Made by a program: the position numbers and the translations under genes. Shown here one piece after another: positions 1 to 53,131 of a stretch of 53,131 bases of DNA (position 1 is the stretch's first letter; each line of letters begins with the position of its first letter). The notes beneath the pieces were generated by a model. The model worked only from the letters and a program-made list of their open reading frames with translations, was not told the origin of the DNA and made no database searches. This DNA is from Girardia tigrina (lineage: Eukaryota): assembly GCA_001938485.1 (NCBI GenBank), contig MQRK01248900.1, positions 146,706 to 199,836 of the forward strand. Reading direction: 5' to 3'.

Positions 1-1140
1 TATCTGTCAAGAAATACCTTATTTATTTTCATACGATAGTTCAAAGTTAAGTTATACGCGATTGAAATGTAAGGTGTGAAGTTTGACCCGTTTCATATCG
101 AACAACCTAATATTATATCCATCTTTTTACAGAATGAATCGTATCAGGTTTCTTCCACCATTAGTTACCAAGATAAAGATAAGATTGCTTTATTTCTTCG
201 AAAGTATCTCTCTCTTCATTATCTTAATTACTGGAAGAAGCAAACAAGTGCTGGTCGTTCCGCCTCTTCTCTCTCTCTTTCTGGTTTCTCAACTTCTGTA
301 ATTTTCAATAGTCGTCTGTCCTACTCTGAATAGGATTTTGTTCATCGTAGTCGGTCCTATACACTTCAAGTTGGATGCCGTTTCCAAAAAGTTGTTGTTT
401 GTCGTAGTTGTAGAGGCTACAACGAGACTTTAGCTCATGTTGTTTCTCATTGCGATACTCTTCAGGCCTATATAAATGCTAGCCATGACACGGTTGTTGA
501 CACTTTAAAGACTGAAATCCAAGAGTATTGCAATGTTGAATTGTATGTAAATGTCACCTACAGGTTTGTTTATTCAACCTTGATGGTTGATTTGCAAGTG
601 TTCTTTCTGGATCGTAAGCGAATAGTCCTGATTGATGTGAAGTGTCCTTTTGATGAGAAGGAGAACTTGGACAAGGCAAACAGGGACAACTTGGCTAAGT
701 ACAAACCTCTCCGCGATGCAATTAAAGATAAATACCGTGATCACACAGTTTTGCTTTACACATTTGTTGTAGGTGCTCTTGGCACATGGATCCCTGCCAT
801 TAGATACCGTTTTCTTATCAGGCAGAGAAAAGGCCATTTTATTGTCTCTTTCCGATCAAACATCCGATGGTCTGCAAGAATGCGGAAAGCTTTCTGTGAT
901 GGACGTGATGCCCACGACTTGTCGGAGTTTCGTGATCCTAAACACAATCCTAGAGATACTCTTCTATTCCAGGAAGGGGCTGTGTTAGACGAGGAAGATT
1001 CTGTAGACGAATTGTGAGTTCATGCTTGAACTTCACGGAACACTCCTATCTGTGCTTGAACAAACTGAAGTATTGAGCTCGCATGCAGTGGGCACCGACT
1101 GGCGAACCGTGCTGCTGCAGAAAAAAAAGCTGCCAACAAA
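1..1140 (+). mobile_element. 3' part of an RLE-type (restriction-like endonuclease) non-LTR retrotransposon, NeSL/R5/Utopia-like, decayed
   Basis: Reading through the TAG at 331-333 gives ...SE*DFVHRSRSYTL...CRSCRGYNETLAHVVSHC (CCHC knuckle), then SHD, LMVDL...LIDVKCPFD...NLAKY...FVVGALGTW (degenerate PD-D/ExK, KxxKY and GxLG motifs). Stop at 1015-1017, followed by a short structured 3' UTR. The element continues off the left edge. Confidence 0.85.
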
Positions 1141-3941: not shown

Positions 3942-5206
3942 TTAGGTTGAACCAAAAGTCTTTTCGTATTTTTATTAAAAATTTAAGCATAATTTTACAA
4001 CAAATAAAAAACATTTAAGTTTCAAGTAAATGCCATTTGAATCTATAGCTTTAACCCATCTATGGGCAAATTGTGCGATCCCGCTGCGGTACCAATCCTT
4101 GTTCTGAGAAGCGAAGAACTGGTGACACCTGTTTTCGACCTCAGTCAGATTATTGAAGCTGCGACCACGAAGAAAGTGTACCATAGAGCAGAAAAGGTGA
4201 TGGTCGGATGGCGCAAGATCCGGACTATACGCTGGGTGTGAAAGAAGTTCAAAGGCGTCGAGATTTTTGATTTTTTCCGTTGTTTGTTTGGTGGTGTGCG
4301 GTTTTGCATTGTCCTGTTGTAGAAGAACTCGCTTTTGATTAATCAAAGCGGGGTATTTCTCGCCAAGTGCCGCATACATTCGATCAAGTAAAGATCAGCG
4401 TCGATGGTACCACCATTTGAACCAGCTCGAAGTGAATCACGCCTTCGAAATTCCACCAAACACACAAAAGTGCCTTCCTTGAGAAACAATCTCGTTTCGC
4501 TACCGATTTCGACATTTTTCCGGGGTCCAACCATTGATTTTGTTGGTCTGGATTACTGAAGTAAACCCACTTTTCATCGCAAGTTACAATTCGACGGATG
4601 AAACGGTCATCGCGCGGATTTTCAAACAATTTTTGACAAGTTTCGAAACGCTTTTTGGCTTGAATTTGTGTCAATTCATGAGGCGCTTCTCGACATCGTT
4701 TATTGACCTTGCCAAGAGGGTGAAGGTGTCGTACAATGGATGTTTGAGGAATATCGAGTTCGGCCGACAATCTGCGAGTACTTATTGACGGATTTGTCTC
4801 GACAGCTACACGAATTGCTCCGGAATCTACAGTGATAGGTCGGCCTGAACGTGCATTGTCTCCGAGGTCAATGTCGCCTTCGTTGAACCTTTTGAACCAA
4901 TTTTGTGCAGTACGAATTGAGACCACATTATCGCCTTCAACTTCACATATCTTGTTTGTTGCTGCAATTGCGTTTAAGCCCTGTTTCCAGTAATGGCGCA
5001 AAAGAATACGAATTTCAAAATTTTCCATGATTTTTCTAAAAGACCATAAAAATTATATTAACAACTAATTAATATATATTGTGATAGAGCAGTTCAAGAG
5101 CTTTAAAAACATATAACACGTGTATATAAAATATCTTTATTTGGTAATAAGAAACAATTGAACAAAAAGACGTAGAAAATTCGATAAGAATTTTGGTTCA
5201 CCCTAA
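3942..5206 (-). mobile_element. Full-length mariner (DD34D) with frameshifted transposase
   Basis: About 31-bp TIRs, TTAGGTTGAACCAAAAGTCTTTTCGTATTTT on the left with a 4-mismatch inverse on the right, and TA TSD. Transposase from 5028 to about 3975 has TCDEKW, QDNAKPH and YSPDLAPSD, split by frameshifts near 4380-4420. Confidence 0.95.
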
Positions 5207-8906: not shown

Positions 8907-9354
8907 TTAATAGTAGTCTTAATATGATATACCATATCCAGTTTCCATGTTAATTACAAATGCCCAAATGTGAGTGGTATAGTTAAATAATTCGAGATTC
9001 CTTATTATTATTTAATATATTTCTTGATGCTAAATACGAAAATGTTTCACAGTCGCATTTTACATAGCAGTGTCATAGGCTACATAAATAAGGAAACAGG
9101 TAATTTTATGTTTTGCTTTCATAACCAAATAGAAAAACATCTCCTTTTCCACTAATATTTATTCTGTTCTTTAGTGATATTATTACCTGAAATGTAAATA
9201 CTAAAAGTCAAGTCTCACACATGAAATATCATTATTTTCGTTCAGATCAGATACTACAACAAATGTTAAATGTATGTCAAATAATAATTATTATTATAAG
9301 TAGGGGGAAAATGGGGCTTCTCCCTCACACAACCCCCCCGGGGACAAATAGCCC

Positions 9355-9472
9355 GTTGCCATGGTAACGGTTCCGGTTACCATAGCAACGTTCGCGGTTA
9401 CGATACAACGGTGGCGGTTACCATAGCAATGACTGAGGTTACCATGGCAACGGTTCTGGTTACCAAAGTAAC
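9355..9472. promoter_or_regulatory. Tandem array of six RFX X-box-like palindromes, 21-bp period
   Basis: GTTGCCATGGTAAC (9355), GTTACCATAGCAAC (9376), GTTACGATACAAC (9397), GTTACCATAGCAAT (9417), GTTACCATGGCAAC (9438), GTTACCAAAGTAAC (9459). Four fit GTNRCC-N2-RGYAAC exactly. The repeat is certain, the regulatory function is inferred. Confidence 0.65.
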
Positions 9473-10073
9473 AGGATTCTGAATTTTGAATAATAGATTC
9501 TTCAAATAAAGAATAGGGCGAGACTTTGAATTGCTAATTTTCTAAATATAGTCGATTTTTGCTACAAAATCATGTCAATATGTTTTACACTTTCCTGGCT
9601 AGCCTAGGTTAGTCCTGGTTATATTAGGATAAGCTATACCATATCACGAATATTAGTATACAATCTATTGAAGTCATAAATGATTATGGTCAACATATTA
9701 ATACTATGGAAATATATGAATATGAGCGATATATAGTCTGTTATGTAATAGAAAGATGTTGATTCTCTTAATCTAATTTAATTAAGATCAAATTTTCATT
9801 AAACATCCTTTCCTTATAAAGATGACTTACATAACAGAAAAGGACACCCGCATGTCGTCCAGCACATTCTACATAACATCCTCTTCAGAAGTAAGAATAT
9901 CATTGCTCCGACTTTTAAAAATAAAATCCATTTTTCTAGATCTTGAAATGGCATTACTTTTCCCACTTAAAGGAACCTAAAATTTAGAAGATGAATTAAG
10001 ACTTATTTATGCAGAGATATTGAATTGACATTAACCATCATGAAAAAAGATTATCATTTTACATAATATGATA

Positions 10074-11388: not shown

Positions 11389-12793
11389 CAATGTACGACA
11401 AATTAATTGCACCAGGCTGAGAAAGTGGTAATATGCTGCACTGTAATCTACTAAGGACAACTGACAGAGGGTGATGAGTCATTCCGTGGGTTGCGTGTGT
11501 AAGTGTGAATGGAGATAAAGTACACTATGTGTATCGCTGTATCACATACTGTATATGCACTGAGAATGGACTTTGAACTCACCTCACACTGCAGTAGGCT
11601 GGTTTTGTAGCATAGTCATTTCTGCAATGGCAGACATCTCGCCAGGACTGAGAGAAAGAGTTATTGCTTTGAGCTAGCATACTTACAAGACTCACAGAGA
11701 GATTGGAGAAGCTATTGGTGTACATCACTCTACAGTTACAAGGATCATTAACCACTAAAAGAACACAAGCTCAGCTGCAACTTTACGTAAAGGACATTGT
11801 GGCCGGAAAGGAAAGCTGTCAGAACTAGACAAGAAAGCCATTATCCGAGAGAGCAAGAAAGACCCGCGTGTCAGTGCTCACTCTGTTCAAGCAGCTTCTT
11901 GGATGATTACAGCTAACGTTTCATTGAGAACCATACAGTGTACCCTGGTGGAAGGTGGACGGCTGGCGTTTCGACCCAGGAAGATGCACTTCCTTGACAA
12001 GAGAAAATGCAAAAATCGATTCCAATGGACAAAGCAGCACATGCATTTATCTTAGGAGATGTGGGATAAGGTAAGCAATGACTCTTTATTGTAAGGCATA
12101 TCCTCCACTGTACCTGTTTATACTGCACTGTACCACAGGTGATCTTCACCAATGAGGCTGCGACTGAAATCGGTGCACAGACAGTACAATTCGTTCGCCG
12201 TGGACAAAGGGAAGCACTCACATCTGCTCATTTCAAATAGCAGCGTGGCATCACAACGAAAGTGATGTTCTGGGGGCCATATCTGTGTTTGTTGTGGGCC
12301 CTCTCGTGCCTATTACTGGCACTATGAACTCAGACAAGTACATCGCCACTCTCACGCAGCATCTTCTACCAGCTGCACAGCATTGGTTTGGTGGTTCACT
12401 TTGGCAACTTCTTCAAAATGGCGAGCCATGCCATACGTCAATCAAGACGACGCAATTCTTAAATGCCAATGGCATTCACTGCGTACCTTTGCCATCGTAT
12501 TCACCAGATATAAATGCGATAGAGAACGTCTGAAATGTCTTGAAGAGGAAGCTGTGCCGTTTTGACCGAGGTGGAAGCACAGATGAGTTGATCGCCAAAG
12601 CTATTCACATTTTGAATACCGATCCCGATGTCAAGGCAACAGCCACCGCCTGTATGCAATCTATGCAACATTGTGGGTCTGAGTTAGTTTTGAGAAAGGG
12701 TGGACCCACTCATTACTGAAATATTAAATACTTGTCACTGGTTTCTTATTTCCTTAGAATATTCCGGTAGGGGCAATTAATTTGTCGCACATT

Positions 12794-15560: not shown

Positions 15561-16115
15561 TTGTCAATGGCATTCTAACCATTCAAACCCCTTCAATACA
15601 TACACCAAAGGAAATATTACGAAATGAGCAGAATGATACATTCCAATCATTTTTCAATATTGATAAAATATGAGTATTAAATGTTTTAAAAGATTTATAA
15701 AATAATTCGGACTTTAAAATTCAAATTGATAATTGTAAATGCAAACAAACTACAAACTACTGTATTTAATAATAATGTTGTTGGAGGTTTTATATGATTT
15801 ATTATTAAAATAGACTCTTTGTTGCTTCAGTATTTTAGTGTGAATTTTCATCATTCTTCTAAAAGGTTAAACTCATTTCCTACACAAAAATATAACATGA
15901 TTCTTATAATTATGGATTAGCCATACTTTTTATTGTATATTTTTATTTTTTTAATACTATTATTTTTAAAACGTCGTTTTATGATTAATCAGTAACATAG
16001 ATAAAAACATTGAGACTATATGGAAATTAGAAGTGAATTTAACGGACTCAATATTTTTATTAATGTTTTCTAGTTCTCCTTTAGAAATTTTGTAACAAAC
16101 TTGTATATTTCTTAG

Positions 16116-16330
16116 GAAAATGCGACTTATTCGGAATTGAAATCAACCAACATCCAAGCAGGTCCGGTTACGATGTGAGATCCCTCACGTACTGTGAGCT
16201 CCAATGCCTCGACCTTTCAAGTCTTGTTGTCATATTTGATCAATACCCTAATTTCAAAAAATCCTTTACGGACGCCTTATCTGATGAACTGTCTTTCAAT
16301 ATAACAGATAATTCGGAAAATAATAATTCC
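16116..16330 (+). CDS. elk: ELK/Kv12 (KCNH3/4/8-like) voltage-gated K+ channel, internal exon encoding the C-terminal half of the cyclic-nucleotide-binding homology domain
   Basis: Acceptor TTTCTTAG, donor GTAAGT, phase 1 to phase 0. Translates as (G)KCDLFGIEINQHPSRSGYDVRSLTYCELQCLDLSSLVVIFDQYPNFKKSFTDALSDELSFNITDNSENNNS, matching KCNH GKGD...DVxALTYCDL...YP.F...L(T/S)(Y/F)N. Not in the ORF track. Confidence 0.93.
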
Positions 16331-19090: not shown

Positions 19091-20427
19091 GTGCTTTCAA
19101 TTGATAGAAATTGTAGTGCCTTGGCACAAAGTAATAAAAGAATCATTCTTAAATTTAAGAATAGGGTGAGGTTTAAGAATCGGTTGTTTTTTGAGTCTTT
19201 TAAGTTGACTAGTTTGATTGAAGGTCTAACTCTTAAATGTACAAGAATAATTTTGAAAGTTAAGTATTCGCATCAGTATATGTATTTTATTTTTACCATT
19301 TAATCATTCAATTGTTTTTCTCAATATTATATAAATATTAAGACTATTTACATGTGTATGTCTATGAAACTCATATTTCCAGGATGAGAATTAATTAACT
19401 CTCAGGAAATTTTTATAGGAAAAATAATCGGTTGTTTTTGTATTATAAATTAATAATCATAAACAATATGTACGAAGTATAACTATTTAGTCAGACCGGA
19501 AATAATTGAGATATAGGAAATAAAAAAATTTGAACTATACATCAGAAAAGAACAATGATGATGTTGTAATGATCCAAGAGCTTTTGTAGGTCGTGACTGA
19601 AAATTGTTTGGAGTATGGCTTATTTGACCTACCCTTGTCAAATGGGAGAAGACGTTTTGTAAATTGTATCAGGTCTAATTGAAGTTTGATCCCCTTTTTA
19701 CTAGTTTTATAAAGAAATAGATGAAGTAATCGCAATTCACTACTTGTTTAACGTTCTTGTAACCGATTAATATTAAAGATAACAGGATTTCTTAAATGTC
19801 CTAAAAAGGTTTTTTGAATTTTTGTCGCAGTTTTCACATAAAGTGTTCATATTGTAACTCGTATTTTACCCTTGGAAAAATTTCGTTTGCAAAAAATATA
19901 TTCCCATTTACTTTATAGAATATAACAGTAAAAGGAACATCTGCACTACCCTGAGATTATGTTAACGCCATCTATGAACATAGGGTATAAAATGTATAAG
20001 TTATTCGCTATATCTATAAAAATTTACTGTTGAACGATCAAGAAAGATTTAAGCTGTTAGATGATCGACTTTCAAACTTCTTAGAGATCTGTGGCATATG
20101 TACCAAAATAAACATGAAAATAATCAAATATCATTTGAATCTTCATTTTATATTTAAGGAAAATTAATTTATTTATCATATGTATTTTGGGTCACCTATC
20201 AAAATTTCGCAATAACAATTTGCAGAAAAAAAAATCACGAAACTTTTCATAATTATCTAGAAAAACTTCGTAAAAATTATTCTAATATTTTTGGTAGTAA
20301 ATTTCGTCTCGAAAATGATGATTATATTTAATTTTTAAAAAATAAAGGTTAAGTACACATAATACTTCTTTCCGCAACGATCAGAGATATTTTTTCGCAA
20401 AAACATTTACTAAATAAATACATAATA

Positions 20428-21717
20428 TTAGGTTGTTGCAAAAGTAATGCAGGTTGTCGAAGCTAAACTTTAAACAAATGTAAGTCAGCACAGAATAAAC
20501 TTTATTAATCGAAATAAAAACCATCAGAATCAGTACATGTTTGCCAACGAAGAACAAGTTTATTGATGACCCTAGTGTAGAACTCCTGATTTCTTGATGC
20601 GATGAAAACGTTAAAGGTGTCTTTTGTATCGTCTTGGTTTTTGAAGCATTTTTTTTCTGGAAGTTGTCCAGATGCTTGAAAAAATGGTAGTCGGTGAGCG
20701 AGAGGTCCGGTGAGTAGGGTGGATGAGGCAGTTTCGTGGCCCAATTCGTTAGCTTTTGTAGGGTCGGTTTTGCGATGTGTGGCCGGACATTGTCGTGGAG
20801 GAGAATTGTCCCATTCATATTGACCAATCTTGGGCACATACGTCGAAGCTCGTGATGCATTTTGTCAATTTGTTGGCATTTCTTCTCTGTGGTGATCATT
20901 TCACTTGAACTCTGAAAGCTGTGATGAATGAGGCCAGATGCAGATCATCAAATATTCACCATAACCTTCTTTTGGTGGAGTTTCGGTTTCGGAAATTGGT
21001 GAGGTGCCTCATCGCTATCTAAATATTGTGCCGAACGTCGCCGATAGTTGTAGATAATCCACTTCTTATCAAACATCCCAATCCGATGGAGAAACGAGTC
21101 GTTCTTGTAGCACGGAAGAAGCGCGGAAGACACCTCAAAACGACGATTTTTTTGACTTTTGTTCAATTTGTGAGGCTCCCTTTTGTTGAGCTTTTTTGAC
21201 TTTTTAATTTGCTTCAAGTGCCAAGCGACGGTTTAGGGATCAACGTTAAGCTCTTATGCGAGTGCTCGAATAACTGTGTGTGGATCGACAACCTAGAGCT
21301 CCTTCAATTCGTCGTTGTCAAAGGTCGATGGGCGGCTTCTATGAGGCTCATCTTCCAGGTTGGTATTGCCAGAGCGAAACTTATGATACCAGCGCTACAC
21401 CGTGCATTCATTGACACTTCTCTTGTCCCAAACTTCGTTCATGTTTCGAGCGGTTTGAGCTGCATTACGTCCTAGCTTGAACATGTAGAAGTAAATGTTG
21501 CGAAAATCACGTTTAGACATCTGCAATTAAAATCGAAATTATTAACAAAAGAAACATTATAATAAGTTTTAGGTAAATATATATGAAATAGTATAAATTA
21601 AGCTTTCGAATAACTCATAACATAGTACAATACATAACATCATACATGATTTAGTCGTATAAAATTGCGGTAAATACAAAAAAATCAAAAACCTGCATTC
21701 CTTTTGCAACAACTTAA
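20428..21717 (-). mobile_element. Full-length mariner, cecropia/Hsmar1-like, pseudogenised
   Basis: TIRs TTAGGTTGTTGCAAAAGTAATGCAGGTT and inverse, TA TSD, 1290 bp. ATG at 21520 (MSKRDFRNIYFYMFKLG). Contains HDNVRPH and YSPDLSLTDYHFFKHLDNF. Multiple frameshifts. Confidence 0.95.
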
Positions 21718-28033: not shown

Positions 28034-30544
28034 GGTGGCTGATCGTTTCGACTAACGGTCGATTCGAGTAAGATCGTTTCGACTAACTATTGGGTTGGCC
28101 AAAAAGTCATTGCGTTTTTTACTAAAATATATATTATCAAAAAATGACATAGATGCACAAATATTTTTACACGATATAGTGTCCATTATTTTCAATCACT
28201 TTCTTCCACCTTTCCGGGAGCTTCATTATTCCTGATTCATAAAAACCTTTGCCTTTGTCAGCAAAAAAGCCGTCTAGGAACGATTTGATGTCATCATCAC
28301 TGGCGTATGTTTTTCTGTTTAATGAAGTCTGCAGTGATCTAAATAAGTGAAAATCCGATGGGACCCAGTATGGTGAATACAGTGGGTGCGGCAAAACCTC
28401 CCAACTCAGTGATAAGAGTTTCTGGCGAGTGGTCAAACTTGTATGCGGTCTTGTGTTATCATGCTGAATTACAAATCCTTTTCGATTTGCAATTCAGGAC
28501 GTTCCTGTTGAATTGAATGAGCCAATTTCTCCAGCTGATCACAATATCTGTCTGAATTGATGGTTTCATTCCTCGGAAAGAGTTCAAAAAACACAATTCC
28601 TTTAAAATTCCACCAGATGGAAAGCATAACCTTCTTTTGGTGAATTTCTGCTTTTAGGAACGTTTTGGCAGGCTCACCATGTTTTTTTCATGATCGTCAG
28701 CGTTCCACATTGTTGTAAACAATCCATTTTTCGTCACCCGTAATCAAGCGCTTCAAAAATGGATCACTTTGTTCTCGCTTCAAAAGAGAATCGCAAATGT
28801 CTATACGTTTCACCAAATTAATTTCTTTCAGTTCATGTGGTAACCACATATCGAGTTTACTGACGAATCTAAGTTTCTTTAAATGACTTCCAACACTTGC
28901 TTTTAATATTTCCAGAGTCTCTGCAATTTCTCTTGTCGTCATATGTGGATTAGATTTGATCAGTGCTGTTATTTTGTCGCCATCAACTTCAACTGGTCGA
29001 CCGGAGCGTGGTGCATCTTTCAGAGGAAATTTTTCAGAACGAAATTTAGAAAACCAATATTGACACTTTCGAAGTTTTAGGGAGTCACTACCATATACAA
29101 AACTTATCTTCTTATGAGCTTGCACAGCGGTTTTCCCTTTGAGAAAATAATGCTACAAAACATGACGAATATGCTCATTTTGATTTTCCATTTCGAATTG
29201 ACGGTAAAGTAATAAATTAAAACAAAATCAATTAATATTTTGTATAAACATAGTCTGGAAATTAAGGTTTCAGAATATATAATTGAATTTAAATTTTATC
29301 ACATCGTTTTATATTTTCAAGCTTTTTATTAAGACGTACTCAAAAACGCAATGACTTTTTGGCCAACCCAATAATAATCTTTAGAACAATAGTTTTTATA
29401 AAAATATTGTTTTTAAAAATAAGTTTTGATTATTTTAAGATAAAATTAAAATTTTATATTAATTTTTAAAAACAATATCTGGAAAATATAATCTTTTAAA
29501 AAAATTTATACTCTTTCCATTATTTCTACATTCTGAAAAAAAATGGGTATAAGACATAAAAAAATTTTGTTTTTGTCTCAATATATGAATTTTGTATGAT
29601 AAATTCAAAAAGATTTGGAACAATGTTTTAAGAATTCAGGCCAAAAAAATTAAAAAATATTAATAAATATTTGAATAAACTTTAAACTGATGAAAACAAA
29701 ATAAAAATTGATTCTCAAAACAATTTAAAAGAATGGGTTTTCTTAATGTTATTTATCCAAGTGATTTATGAAGTTTATGATAAAATAGGGTTTGTGTCAA
29801 ATGCCCGAATCCCAAAAGACCGAAATTATTACAAAAATTATTTTTATAAATCAAATAAGGTTTTTTTTCCTTTTAAAGTGATTTTTTTTATTTTAAAAGG
29901 AGTTTTTTCTATTAAAATTCAGATTTTAAATGTCTTAAAAATATACAAATAAAGAAAATGAGACAATCTCAAGTTTAAATGAAAAAAATTAATTTTGTAA
30001 TAATTTAGGTCTTTTAGAATTCGGTCTTTTGGGATCCTAATAAAATAATATCTTTAATAAATAAAAAACATTTTAATAATATTAAATTATTTTAATAATA
30101 AATAATATTTATTATACTTAAAATTTTCAAACAATTTTAAATTTAAATTTTTTCATAATTTTTTATAGTATAGAGGTAATAAAAATGTGAGGTGTCGATA
30201 ATTTTTTGTCATCGAAAAATAGAAGGAAAAAAATTGGCGTTAATATTACAAAAATCAATTCCTTCAGTTCCAACTGTTTTTGAAAAATAATTTTTATTAA
30301 TCTATTTTATTTATTTATTAATTATTTATTAATTTATTATAATTTATTTATTAAATAATTTTATTTAGTTAATTTATTATAATTTATTTATTAATTATTT
30401 TTATTTACTTATTTTATTTATTTATTATGTATTTATTTATTAAGTTTTAAATGTTTTGTTACAATCAACAATTAATAAATAAAATTCATAATTATTCGAA
30501 TCGACGGTTAGTCGAACTGACCTTAGTCGAATCGACCTAGAACC
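28034..30544. mobile_element. Non-autonomous TIR element (MULE/Merlin-like) carrying a nested mariner
   Basis: GG...CC termini with inverted subterminal repeats (GATCGTTTCGACTAAC on the left, GTTAGTCGAA on the right). 8-bp TSD ATTAAATA at 28026-33 and 30545-52. Confidence 0.75.
28090..29371 (-). mobile_element. Full-length mariner, mellifera subfamily (Famar1/Ammar1-like), pseudogenised
   Basis: Perfect 30-bp TIRs TTGGGTTGGCCAAAAAGTCATTGCGTTTTT, TA TSD, 1282 bp. ATG at 29191 (MENQNEHIRH). Contains ITGDEKW, HDNTRPH and RWKKVIENNGHY, with stops and frameshifts. Confidence 0.95.
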
Positions 30545-33112: not shown

Positions 33113-34543
33113 TGCTACTTATAAGTATGTCACCATCGAGAAGATTTTTCTACTCACAGTGAACTGTCCCTCTGAGATTTTCATCAGTTTCATGAATTTT
33201 TCTAGATTTCATCAATTCTCGGATTCACATTCGCTTCAAAAGCATGTGCTATTACTTTTTTCTTCGAATAATGTTTAGGAAACCTGGTCACTCTATCTGA
33301 AAAATTAGATTAGGATTTCACCAGTTGCAGTACTAGTTCGAAATTTCTGCTGGTCCTTCAATTCTCAAATGATATTGAACCTTCGTTGCAGTAGATGTTC
33401 AGATAAGATGCGTGTTTTTGGTTATGTTTATTCTTAAATACTAACATGAGCTATCCGTATACTGTTTTTGAGTCCGTCATTTGTTTGCATTTATGAAAAC
33501 CATAAGTTATTGCCAAATTTATACCTCTAATGGCTGAATCCAGTTCGCTCTTATTAATGTGGTTTGCATTTTCATCTTTTCTTAGCCAAGCAGCATACTC
33601 GTCCATATCACCATTTTTAAATATTAGAAATAAGCGAAATTATTGTTCAAAGAGACAAAGAAACGAAAATATTTGTTTAAATTTTGTGTATAATAAATTC
33701 TCATTTCATTAACCTTAATAATCAATTTCGAAATTAGGACTGCAGAAATAGACATTACAACACAGATAAAAAAGGATATGGTTTATTACTGTTTAATACT
33801 AATTCAGGATAATGTGTGTGAGGAATATGGGGTGTGTAATTGTTTTTGTAGTGTTTGCATGTTTAAATGTTGTGTGTTGATTTGGGATGGTGCCTCTCCT
33901 AACCAGATGGATGATCAATATTTTAATTCTTATAATATGAAACTAATTTATTTAAATTTAGATTTAATATTCAAATTTTTAATTTTTATTATTGCAACTT
34001 TTAAATAATTTTATTGATTTTATTTTTGTAAATTTTTAAATAATTAAAATCAAATTAATGTTTCAAAATGACTATAGAAATATTTTATTTAAGTCAATAA
34101 AATTTAAATTAAATATTTTTTTTAATAAAATAATTTTTCAAGTATAGTTCAGATTATAATGAGAGATATTGAAATTGAGTGATGGATTATAGTGAAAGCA
34201 ATACTATTGATCATCATAAAGATGATAAGAAATGTGAATGTAATAAATGTTCTGTCAAATGTTCTCTTAACAATGTGTATTAAAAATTGTAGATTACGTC
34301 TTCCTTTTATCTGCTTGTTAAAATTTGAAGTTTAAATTCAGGATTTAGATATGTTGATGAGGAATCTTAATAGGCATTTTAAAACTTTTTAAGGAATACA
34401 TTTCGATAGAATTTTTTTGGATTAAATAAGAGATTCCTTCTTCAAGTACAGAATTGTCACATGAATGTGGTTGCATTTAACTTTGAAAACAGATATGAAG
34501 TTATTTTAAATGTTAATTATTTAATACATAATTTTATTAAGTA

Positions 34544-44748: not shown

Positions 44749-45822
44749 GTTTATATATTCAAGCATCTTGTTTATGATTAACGATATTAATTATATGATT
44801 TTAATATCAAATTAATATCAAATTATATGATTTTCATGTTCGAAATTCAAAATAACTCTTAATTATTAATTTTTAAGATCGAATTTTCGAATCCAGAGAT
44901 TAATTTAGCCTTAATAAAACAGAAATTACACAATTAAGACTTATGTAATTGCTTGATAATCTATTGCATAATTCAAATAAATTGTGCTAAGTACTCTATT
45001 GTTTCTACGGGTGTTTCACATCGTTTATCAAATTTTCATTTAAATTAAGAGTATAACTTCCAAGTTCCGTTACAAATATACTTTATTAAGCAAGTGCTTT
45101 TCATTTGTATAAATTAGAACCTCTAAAATTATTTTAAAATGAATATTCATTTAAAATAGTAAATGTAGGTATGCAAAAAATATAATTCTAAACACAAACG
45201 AAATCATGGGATTGTAAGCATAATATAACTGCGGGTCCATTTTTTCGAAGTAAAATTTTAAAAGATTTACCATCGAGTTATTATAAAAATACTTTTTTCG
45301 GTTTCCCTAACACACTTAAATATTTTATTATAAAACTTTTAAAATAAAACTTCAGTATTTTAGGAATAGCATTAAAATTAATAATTTTATCGATTATTAT
45401 TGACTCGTTGACCTTCATGTGATCGTGGAAATAGTAAACTTTCGAGCGAAATGCTAATTTTTTACATAGTAAAAATTTATTCAACTATAAAAATGATTCA
45501 ACAAGAAATAATTAAAAATAAAAACAATAGAAATGTGAAAAAATTAAAAGCTATTTAACAATAACAAAAGTTATTAAAAAATTAATAAATCATAATAAAG
45601 AAACATTAAAGAACTCTAGTAATTTTATAAAAAACTAAATTTTACAATTTCCATTACCTAGAATTTTCGAATAAAAATTTTTATGTTTTATCAAAAAAAG
45701 AATTTTTTTCATTAAATTACAATTTTCACAAAAAAAATGTATTCCGAATAAATTAACAAAAAAACAATATCTTAATATATTTTAAATAGAAAAAAATCAA
45801 TTAAATTTGTTTTACTAAACCA

Positions 45823-45848
45823 ACGTCAGTATTCATAGAAGCCATTTT
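45823..45848 (+). promoter_or_regulatory. Putative TATA-less core promoter of the hnRNP gene
   Basis: ACGTCA (CRE/ATF half site) overlaps Inr-like TCAGT (45826-30). YY1-type GCCATTTT lies at 45841-48, 16 nt before the ATG. Short motifs, function inferred. Confidence 0.4.
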
Positions 45849-45863
45849 GCATCCTTAACGGCA

Positions 45864-46844
45864 ATGTCTAATAGAAACGATAACGATCGATCTTCCGAAC
45901 AATTTCGAAAACTGTTCATCGGTGGATTGAGTTTCGTGACCAACGAAGATACTTTAAAGTCGCATTTCGAACAATGGGGAGAACTGGTCGACGTTGTGGT
46001 GATGAGAATGGGTGGAAAAAATGGCAAATCTCGTGGATTCGGATTCGTCACTTACAAAGACCCGGAAATGGTCGACGCAGCCCAACTCAATCGACCACAC
46101 AACATCGATGATCGAAATGTCGAAACGAAACGAGCAATGCCACGCGATGAAGCCAACTCCGCCGAAGCTCACATGACCGTCAAGAAACTGTTCGTTGGAG
46201 CGTTGAAAAAGGAAGTTGTCGCCGATGATTTACGGGATTATTTCGGACAATTCGGGAATATTGTCGAGTGCGAAATAATCACATGGCGAGAGACCGGTGA
46301 GTCACGAGGATTCGGCTTCGTCACATTCGACGATTACGACCCGGTGGACAAGATCTTGCTCCACAAGCCGCACTACATCGACAAGAAGCGATGCGAAGTA
46401 AAAAAAGCGTTGAGTAAAGAAGAGGCGCGTTCATTGAAAGCCAAAGAGAACATGAGCACAATCGGCAAATCGAAATACGGCAACAACAACAGCTCGAGTA
46501 ACTCGCAACAGTCGCACTCGAATGGCGGAATGATGGGTAATGACACGCGAGTTATCGCGTCTTTTTTATTCTCGTTTTTCTCTCGTCTTGACTTTTTTTC
46601 TTTTCTTAATATTTTCTTTAAAACTTTTAATTTGTTTTAAATTTATTAAGGATTTATGGGGGACGTTCGAAACGAATTTAATAGTCGTTATGATAATTTT
46701 GGTGGTTATCAGGATTATGATGATAGGTTTGGTCGGTACCCGAGTCAGGGATACAGCGGAGGGCCCGTGAGAGGCAATGTGAGTTACAGGAGTCAGCAGC
46801 AGGCGCCCTATAGCAGTAGCGGCAGGATGAGGCGGGATTATTAG
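45864..46844 (+). CDS. hnRNPA1: Heterogeneous nuclear ribonucleoprotein A/B family (A1/A2B1/Hrb98DE-like), 2 exons join(45864..46536,46651..46844), 288 aa
   Basis: Two RRMs ([40 protein letters not shown]). A phase-1 114-nt intron G|GTAATG...TTAAG|GA restores a G/Y/R-rich tail ending GGPVRG...R...APY (PY-NLS-like). Confidence 0.93.
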
Positions 46845-52258: not shown

Positions 52259-53131
52259 TTGGGTGTATAACTAATTAATTTCGTATTATTTTGGTAAAAA
52301 AACCATTTATTTAAGTATAAAAGTGAAAAAATATTTTATTCAAAATATTGTCCATCGGAAGCGGCAACTTTTTCCCATCTGTCAGGCAATTTATGGATTC
52401 CATCCCAAAAAAACTTCTCATCTTTTGCGCCGAGAAAGCCATCAAGCCATTTTTTAATACCTTCAACATTGGTGAACCGTATTCCAGAAAGGTGATTCTG
52501 TATCGACCGAAACAAGTGATAATCAGAAGGAGCTATGTCTGGGCTATAAGGCGGGGGAGGTAGAATTTCCCATCCGGCATTTTCCAAATAATTTTTCACC
52601 GGTACTGCAACATGTGGCCGAGCATTGTCATGATGGAAAATCAATTTTTCGTGTCTGGTCGCCCATTCTGGCCGTTTATCGGCTATTGCTTGCTTCAAAC
52701 GTATCAATTGTTGCCTGTATAGCTCTCCCGTGATCGTCTGGCCCGATTTTAACAGCTCATAGTACAGCACACCCTTCTGATCCCACCAAATACAGAGCAT
52801 TACCTCCAAACTATGGTGTCGATTTGGCTGGTTGGCCTGGCTTCACATATGATCTTTTACGCTTTGGGTTGTCGTAATGAATCCACTTTTCATCGCCAGT
52901 GACAATACGATGTAAAAAACGGTTTCTTTTTGTGGCGATTAAGCAGCATTTCAGACATGCAAAATCGTCTCTCAACGTCTCTCGGCTTCAATTCGTGTGG
53001 CACCCAATTTCTTTGTTTCTGAATGTATCCAGCTGCTTTTAAACGTTTAGAAATGGCTTGTTGAGTGACTTCCAATGTTTTTCCAAGTTCTTCTTGAGTT
53101 TGACATGGATCTTGATCGAGTAATGCCTCCA
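52259..53131 (-). mobile_element. Mariner, mauritiana/Mos1-like, running off the right edge, frameshifted
   Basis: TA plus TIR start TTGGGTGTATAACT at 52259. Motifs WVPHEL, VTGDEKW, HDNARPH, YSPDIAPSDYHLF and RWEKVAASDGQYFE*. Confidence 0.95.

Follow-up and report, generated by a model that had tools for sequence, protein, structure and literature searches.

Introduction

Polintons or Mavericks (adintoviruses) are recognized by terminal inverted repeats (TIRs) of 100–1,500 bp, a 6-bp target-site duplication, an (AG)3 or (AGT)2 end motif, a protein-primed family B polymerase, a capsid, a packaging ATPase and a retroviral-like integrase. An expansion of Mavericks has been reported in Dugesia genomes (10.64898/2025.12.11.693146). 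Host RFX proteins are known to bind the DNA of other parasites: targets of RFX1/3 include the inverted terminal repeat of AAV and the EF-C enhancers of HBV and polyomavirus (PMC5760533). The strict X-box consensus for RFX that we use, GTNRCC-NN-RGYAAC, is taken from 10.1101/2021.02.03.429678, and in a Drosophila study the X-box alone did not predict RFX control (PMC2375033).

Here, we analyse an array of X-box-like units in a stretch of 53,131 nucleotides (the window) of the Girardia tigrina genome, for which the original prediction proposed a selected RFX platform, possibly transposon-borne and acting on elk. In the reading that we favour, a high-copy Polinton/Maverick-like element has this array as its subterminal repeat, where phased sites likely let host RFX dock and serve the element's own genes, and the copy in an intron of a channel gene is truncated and probably inert. 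The identity of the family as Polinton-like we hold with high confidence; given that identity, we lean modestly, on sequence grounds, towards the use of RFX by its ends.

Results

A 21-bp repeat with four strict X-boxes

The array occupies 9355..9472 (+ strand) and is identified by sequence, TRF, X-box scan and family statistics as a subterminal 21-bp repeat of six X-box-like units. The units start at 9355, 9376, 9397, 9417, 9438 and 9459 and are separated by the five spacers originally read, and TRF agrees with the proposed spacing of about 21 bp (period 21, 5.7 copies, 73% matches). Not all six match the X-box, however: the strict pattern GTNRCC-N0-3-RGYAAC fits four (9355, 9376, 9438 and 9459, + strand), which are the only + strand matches in the window, where 100 base shuffles gave a mean of 0.13 matches and a maximum of 1. 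Unit 3 (9397) departs from the consensus by one substitution and a 1-bp loss, and unit 4 (9417) by its last base, T. The description of the units as palindromes has to be given up, since read from the sequence none of the six (0/6) is perfectly palindromic. The spacers do differ within the window as proposed, but across the family five of the seven spacer positions keep one base in 77–94% of units; the variable spacers seen here are partly family variants and partly decay.

Ends of a dispersed element family

What kind of sequence carries the array? A TIR terminus just upstream had been suspected, and we confirm one, although it begins at 9299 with AGTAG and not at 9301 with TAG. In the 1.43-Gb AT-rich assembly that we searched, the array gave 1,902 candidates, and the exact 18-base end motif occurs at least 3,781 times as against 0 for a control; the window's own end is one base off this motif and lies outside that count. 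All copies shown lose similarity in their flanks immediately upstream of AGTAG, and this flank divergence delimits the terminus in the window, AGTAG plus the C/G tract of the TIR, at 9299..9354 (+). The left flank at 9293..9298 (+) would be one half of a 6-bp target duplication, the partner of which was not found.

Copies with both ends have AGTAG at one tip and a closing CTACT at the other. Among ten such copies, taken from the fetched loci and with an extra inner end in L294 left out, six have a perfect 6-bp target duplication, two match at 5/6 and two have none; allowing one mismatch, this gives 8/10 versus 2/90 for cross-paired, mismatched flanks. The many exact ends, the sharp divergence of the flanks and these duplications bear out the proposal that the array is transposon-borne. 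The duplication has the Polinton length, and the TIRs of about 1.2–1.5 kb (about 1.45 kb matching at both ends of L184/L185) fall within the Polinton range. The tips read AGTAG and then G (AGTAGG), a single base away from (AGT)2. In the genome, pairs of perfect boxes at a distance of 7 bp amount to 11,381 strand matches, with self-complementary pairs counted twice, as against 11 for pairs at 8–12 bp.

A C/G hairpin lies near the tip and would suit the end of a Helitron/Helentron or Academ element. Helitrons and Helentrons have asymmetric ends and no target duplication, and Academ elements have a TAG tip with a 3–4-bp duplication. Membership of the former fails on the symmetrical inverted ends, which exceed 1 kb, and on the 6-bp duplications; membership of the latter fails on a boundary two bases further out, with AGTAG...CTACT tips, and on duplications of exactly 6 bp. 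With a Maverick-type polymerase between the ends in addition, this assignment is hardly credible, and the genome's other arrays of this kind probably do not mark Helitron ends either.

Several short contigs (L071, L085, L086, L083/L084) are bounded by two outward-pointing family ends, which suggests clustered insertions and that family ends break the assembly. At L093:1270-2140, what comes after a family end is an acidic ORF region that departs from the usual genes and may represent another subtype. Window positions 33817–34272 match, at 88%, a 445-bp stretch in L286 beside its right end, probably another repeat nested in L286.

Constraint on the box positions

Position-specific variation was measured in 348 units from 81 ends that had not been retrieved through the array. 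Of the 60 among these ends that are at least 150 bp long, 53 have two or more units. The eight RFX-fixed positions have a heterozygosity of 0.14, compared with 0.39 for the six tolerant positions and 0.40 for the spacers. Differences as extreme arose in 19/3,003 permutations for fixed versus tolerant positions and in 33/6,435 for fixed positions versus spacers, counts that overstate independence because the units are related by descent; core versus spacer overall gave 5,618/116,280. The constraint persists among the 233 distinct unit sequences (11/3,003 permutations). Cores mutating as freely as spacers across many copies would have spoken against the original prediction; at the family level we find instead that the RFX-fixed positions vary least.

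GTNRCC-N1-3-RGYAAC fits four of the six window units and 151 of the 348 family units as strict matches, and the degenerate consensus fits 203. Two positions are misfits to the RFX pattern: fixed position 1 varies (0.40) and tolerant position 8 hardly does (0.11). An A at position 1 is permitted by the degenerate X-box consensus (PMC2375033).

In the plain sense, the array is also a 21-bp minisatellite. Could one founding X-box-like word have been multiplied by slippage and be carried in the ends without function? A 21-bp period is expected from whole-unit slippage, and 152 unit-to-unit gaps measure 21 bp, the next commonest gap occurring 23 times. Moreover, unit number per end ranges from one or two to more than ten, and derivatives with few or no boxes (L002, L006, L007, L013) have spread too. 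Drift would not spare RFX-fixed bases, however, and the constraint among distinct units makes this explanation quite unlikely.

Alternatively, within the same element, the units may serve a protein of the element itself or of a helper that recognizes the ends or replicates the DNA, and their likeness to X-boxes would be incidental; candidate readers are the product of the element's Cys-rich ORF, the polymerase or terminal protein, and an integrase. Subterminal repeats are commonly bound by the own proteins of TIR elements, and the spacer bases adjacent to the cores are conserved as well: spacer positions 1–3 are well kept (0.14–0.30), in a GGT..CG frame. The Cys-rich ORF, which has no convincing family match, leaves room for such a reader. 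Against this, the variable core positions coincide with those that the RFX consensus tolerates, CCAAT boxes are interleaved among the units, and capsid-bearing Mavericks that own an integrase have no such arrays. We consider reading by such a protein unlikely. A hairpin function of the units is rejected, as only 12 of the 348 cores are perfect palindromes.

For docking by host RFX, the reading that we favour, the surroundings of the boxes are of interest. CYGATTGG (CCAAT) boxes occur in 18 of 45 long termini, mostly 18 or 39 bp after a box. Among distances other than multiples of 21 bp, those of 30–32, 51–52 and 62 bp fit whole helical turns and those of 36, 66 and 67 bp do not, and helical phasing outside the basic unit is modest (mean cosine 0.37–0.41). 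The genome encodes RFX DNA-binding domains (six matches on five contigs). A search of viral contigs returned no paired X-boxes.

A truncated copy in a channel-gene intron

The copy in the window measures 461 bp, from its left boundary at 9299 to 9759, where it stops abruptly; the first 175 bp are left end and the other 286 bp come from inside the element. The internal segment (9474..9759, +) is a deletion-joined piece of the same family, with 88–95% identity to other copies, and contains a degenerate TBP-like piece (approximately 9559–9702; 38% identity to the element's TBP-like ORF, E 3e-9). Neither a right terminus nor a terminus-plus-duplication string was found in the window. End-to-internal junctions of this type occur in L002 and L006, and the segment downstream of the array has 2,690 candidates in the genome.

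The host gene encodes a KCNH channel, of which consecutive exons match residues 57–140 and 140–208 of chain 3ukn_A. We take 3ukn to be an ELK channel, and the ELK label for the host gene depends on that; a full-length ELK homology search returned one near-identical fragment only. The next exon of this likely ELK gene, recognized by its match to 3ukn_A, lies at 16115..16318 (+), and the preceding KCNH exon approximately 9.7 kb before the window start, which gives an intron of about 25.8 kb. The relic sits about 19 kb into this intron, whose flanking exons are both late ones, within the 3' half of the channel gene.

Has the host adopted this copy as an RFX enhancer for elk expression in ciliated cells, as originally suggested? 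Four strict boxes persist inside the channel gene, and in worm neurons a reporter can be weakly expressed from three X-boxes in tandem (10.1101/2021.02.03.429678). Letters that are rare in the family occur five times in the spacers of the window array and four times in its cores (units 3, 4 and 6; those of unit 3 were counted by eye), a lean to the spacers (5/9) that is not significant (P 0.09), and three of the six cores are altered. The copy is one-ended and internally deleted and lies deep in a late intron, the same array is present at thousands of ends, better arrays number in the thousands across the genome, and nothing sets this one apart. Neither selection at this locus nor a role in elk expression is borne out, and an enhancer function of the window copy is very improbable. 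It is probably an inert, truncated relic, a decaying passenger, and we advise against annotating the array as an elk enhancer.

The window contains further features. An intronless ORF with two RRMs at 45819–46637 (+; Pfam RRM_1, E 3e-30) resembles an hnRNP A/B gene or a retrocopy. A 227-aa frame at 334–1014 (+) has no Pfam match and looks like the endonuclease end of a non-LTR retrotransposon. Two identical 115-bp tandem copies at 1141–1370 could be an assembly artefact. Relics of mariner/Tc1-type transposases, recognized by eye from translations, lie at 3978–5052, 11759–12716, 20384–21232, 28170–29152 and 52339–53129.

Gene content of the long copies

Long copies measure 8–10 kb (L283, 8.9 kb; L286, 8.3 kb; L184/L185, 10.2 kb), are distinguished from each other by inversions and deletions, and have ORFs interrupted by stops or frameshifts. 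All of them contain a Cys-rich ORF and a polymerase, to which L283 and L286 add a fourth ORF and the TBP-like ORF. The genes belong with the ends: TIR sequence lies within 1.5 kb of the polymerase in 13 of 30 polymerase loci, and 7 of 10 extended polymerase contigs have X-box ends. The polymerase of L283 points away from one end of the element, and the fourth ORF of that copy away from the opposite end.

Over 429 aa, the family polymerase shares 32% identity (E 5e-65) with the DNA_pol_B_2 (PF03175) protein of a capsid-bearing Maverick, a homology that places it with the family B polymerases of Polintons and predicts protein priming; the family polymerase ORFs themselves gave no PF03175 match in the Pfam search. 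The polymerase carries an Endonuclease_7 domain, and its best named relatives are insect proteins (38–49%). The TBP-like ORF has a TBP domain (E 9e-16) and 1,776 candidates in the genome; the search for relatives with context in metagenomes gave one weak locus only. The Cys-rich ORF has no convincing family in PHROGs or Pfam.

The fourth ORF is predicted to encode a viral-type ssDNA-binding protein, although a shared fold is no proof of function. Its model (pLDDT 91) resembles the phage Enc34 SSB (Z 8.3, rmsd 3.0, 103 aligned), T7 gp2.5 (Z 7.9) and ASFV CP312R (Z 6.9), with the next unrelated row at 5.4. Foldseek gave nothing at E 0.001 or better on the PDB and eight matches, unnamed or uncharacterised, on viral models, and a look-up in a structure atlas returned no usable match. 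Part of the element is present in public sequencing runs, with shares of at most 0.14 and on contigs of uncertain RNA status; coverage extends over all 30 bins, a pattern that cannot tell RNA from DNA.

Possible helpers among capsid-bearing Mavericks

Queries with Maverick integrase, two capsids and one ATPase gave no tblastn match attributable to the element in 98 family loci (482 kb), the lone integrase match (27–28%) belonging to a neighbouring retroelement in L182. Likewise, no integrase was found in eight stretches of both-end copies, of which L286, L284 and L091 are free of N; the absence is that of homologues of three Maverick integrases in sampled loci, some with N stretches. Polintons by definition carry an integrase (PMC5499653); in operation the family therefore resembles a Polinton, but it does not qualify as one.

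Capsid-bearing Mavericks with rve integrases and AGTAGT ends are numerous in the genome, and we saw no X-box arrays in them. A partner segment combining X-box ends with integrase and capsid is absent from 58 capsid/ATPase loci and their flanks, and 49 integrase-side loci have no X-box ends. Two near-cases came out of this search, a nested X-box element beside an integrase in L233 and a 59-bp fragment in L199. The former, at L233:3704-5668, is 2 kb long, nearly palindromic and apparently a nested insertion, and is immediately followed by a Maverick integrase gene.

Many capsid-bearing Mavericks are found among L227–L246 (for example L229/L230), with AGTAGT ends and integrases fused to a phospholipase-like domain, and one of them has a perfect 6-bp duplication; these are candidate helpers. 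In L307, L317, L348 and L350, end-like motifs (AGTAGT..GAAATGG) without boxes lie near integrase-type genes and share much of the first 18 bases of the X-box family.

Discussion

How might such an element maintain itself? We infer that it copies itself by protein-primed synthesis and, because 6-bp duplications occur without an integrase of its own, that it would borrow the integrase of capsid-bearing Mavericks in the same genome. In RFX-active cells, dimers of RFX would sit on the same side of the helix at successive units; together with NF-Y, and perhaps with the TBP-like protein that the element encodes, they could direct transcription inward from each end. Activity in the germ line would account for the high copy number. 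NF-YB has been described in planarian spermatogonial stem cells (PMC4909293). If RFX reads the ends, the parasite would couple the timing of its replication to the programme for cilia or sperm tails. This would bear on how Polintons gain access to the germ line and multiply there.

More tentatively, the family may be a self-copying Polinton satellite, integrase-less and capsid-less, with phased RFX and NF-Y sites in both ends to attract host regulators of cilia or the germ line and a TBP-like protein of its own to complete initiation, that relies on the integrase of a helper Maverick and has seeded thousands of clustered RFX sites; we regard this full scenario as possible rather than probable. 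The gene set (polymerase, predicted SSB and TBP-like gene, with no integrase or capsid found) would define a reduced, helper-dependent form of Polinton. A family with well over 5,000 perfect box pairs could soak up host RFX or supply ready-made enhancers. Our searches of openly accessible papers turned up no account of RFX sites at the ends of Polintons, nor of this combination of genes.

How does the family compare with described systems? With Polintons/Mavericks (adintoviruses) it shares long TIRs, AGT...ACT tips and 6-bp duplications (PMC10748475, PMC8097293, PMC8502044), and its polymerase is homologous to that of pPolB2-type Polintons with an HNH domain, the family having the HNH-type Endonuclease_7 (PMC10748475). 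Its copies of 8–10 kb or shorter are smaller than the 13–25 kb given for Polintons/Mavericks, and in contrast to these it has no integrase, capsid or ATPase that we could find and has a TBP-like gene and a predicted gp2.5-type SSB. Within this genome, the tip AGTAGG and the X-box arrays distinguish the family from capsid-bearing Mavericks, which have AGTAGT tips and no arrays.

A MELD element with an adintovirus-like PolB is also listed with a TBP-like gene, and integrase-less linear MELD elements exist, those of Hydra and a spider being described as apparently complete viruses (PMC8502044). Unlike these integrase-less MELDs as described there, the family integrates with 6-bp duplications, and we saw no virion genes in it. 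The ciliary X-box promoters of RFX/DAF-19 have the same core, GTNRCC-NN-RGYAAC with one strong half-site (10.1101/2021.02.03.429678, PMC3245922, PMC2375033), but the boxes described here, unlike the ciliary X-boxes of these accounts, are repeat-borne, not single and not in a promoter.

In conclusion, AAV offers a close parallel, as a parasite with linear DNA whose inverted end contains an RFX-type site, the D sequence (PMC5760533). The sites reported there for AAV, HBV and polyomavirus are single and have been shown to bind, whereas those of the family are putative and form phased arrays that can reach ten or more. For viral ends and enhancers, RFX sites have been proposed to support transcription of the parasite (PMC5760533), the same role that we propose for the ends of this family.
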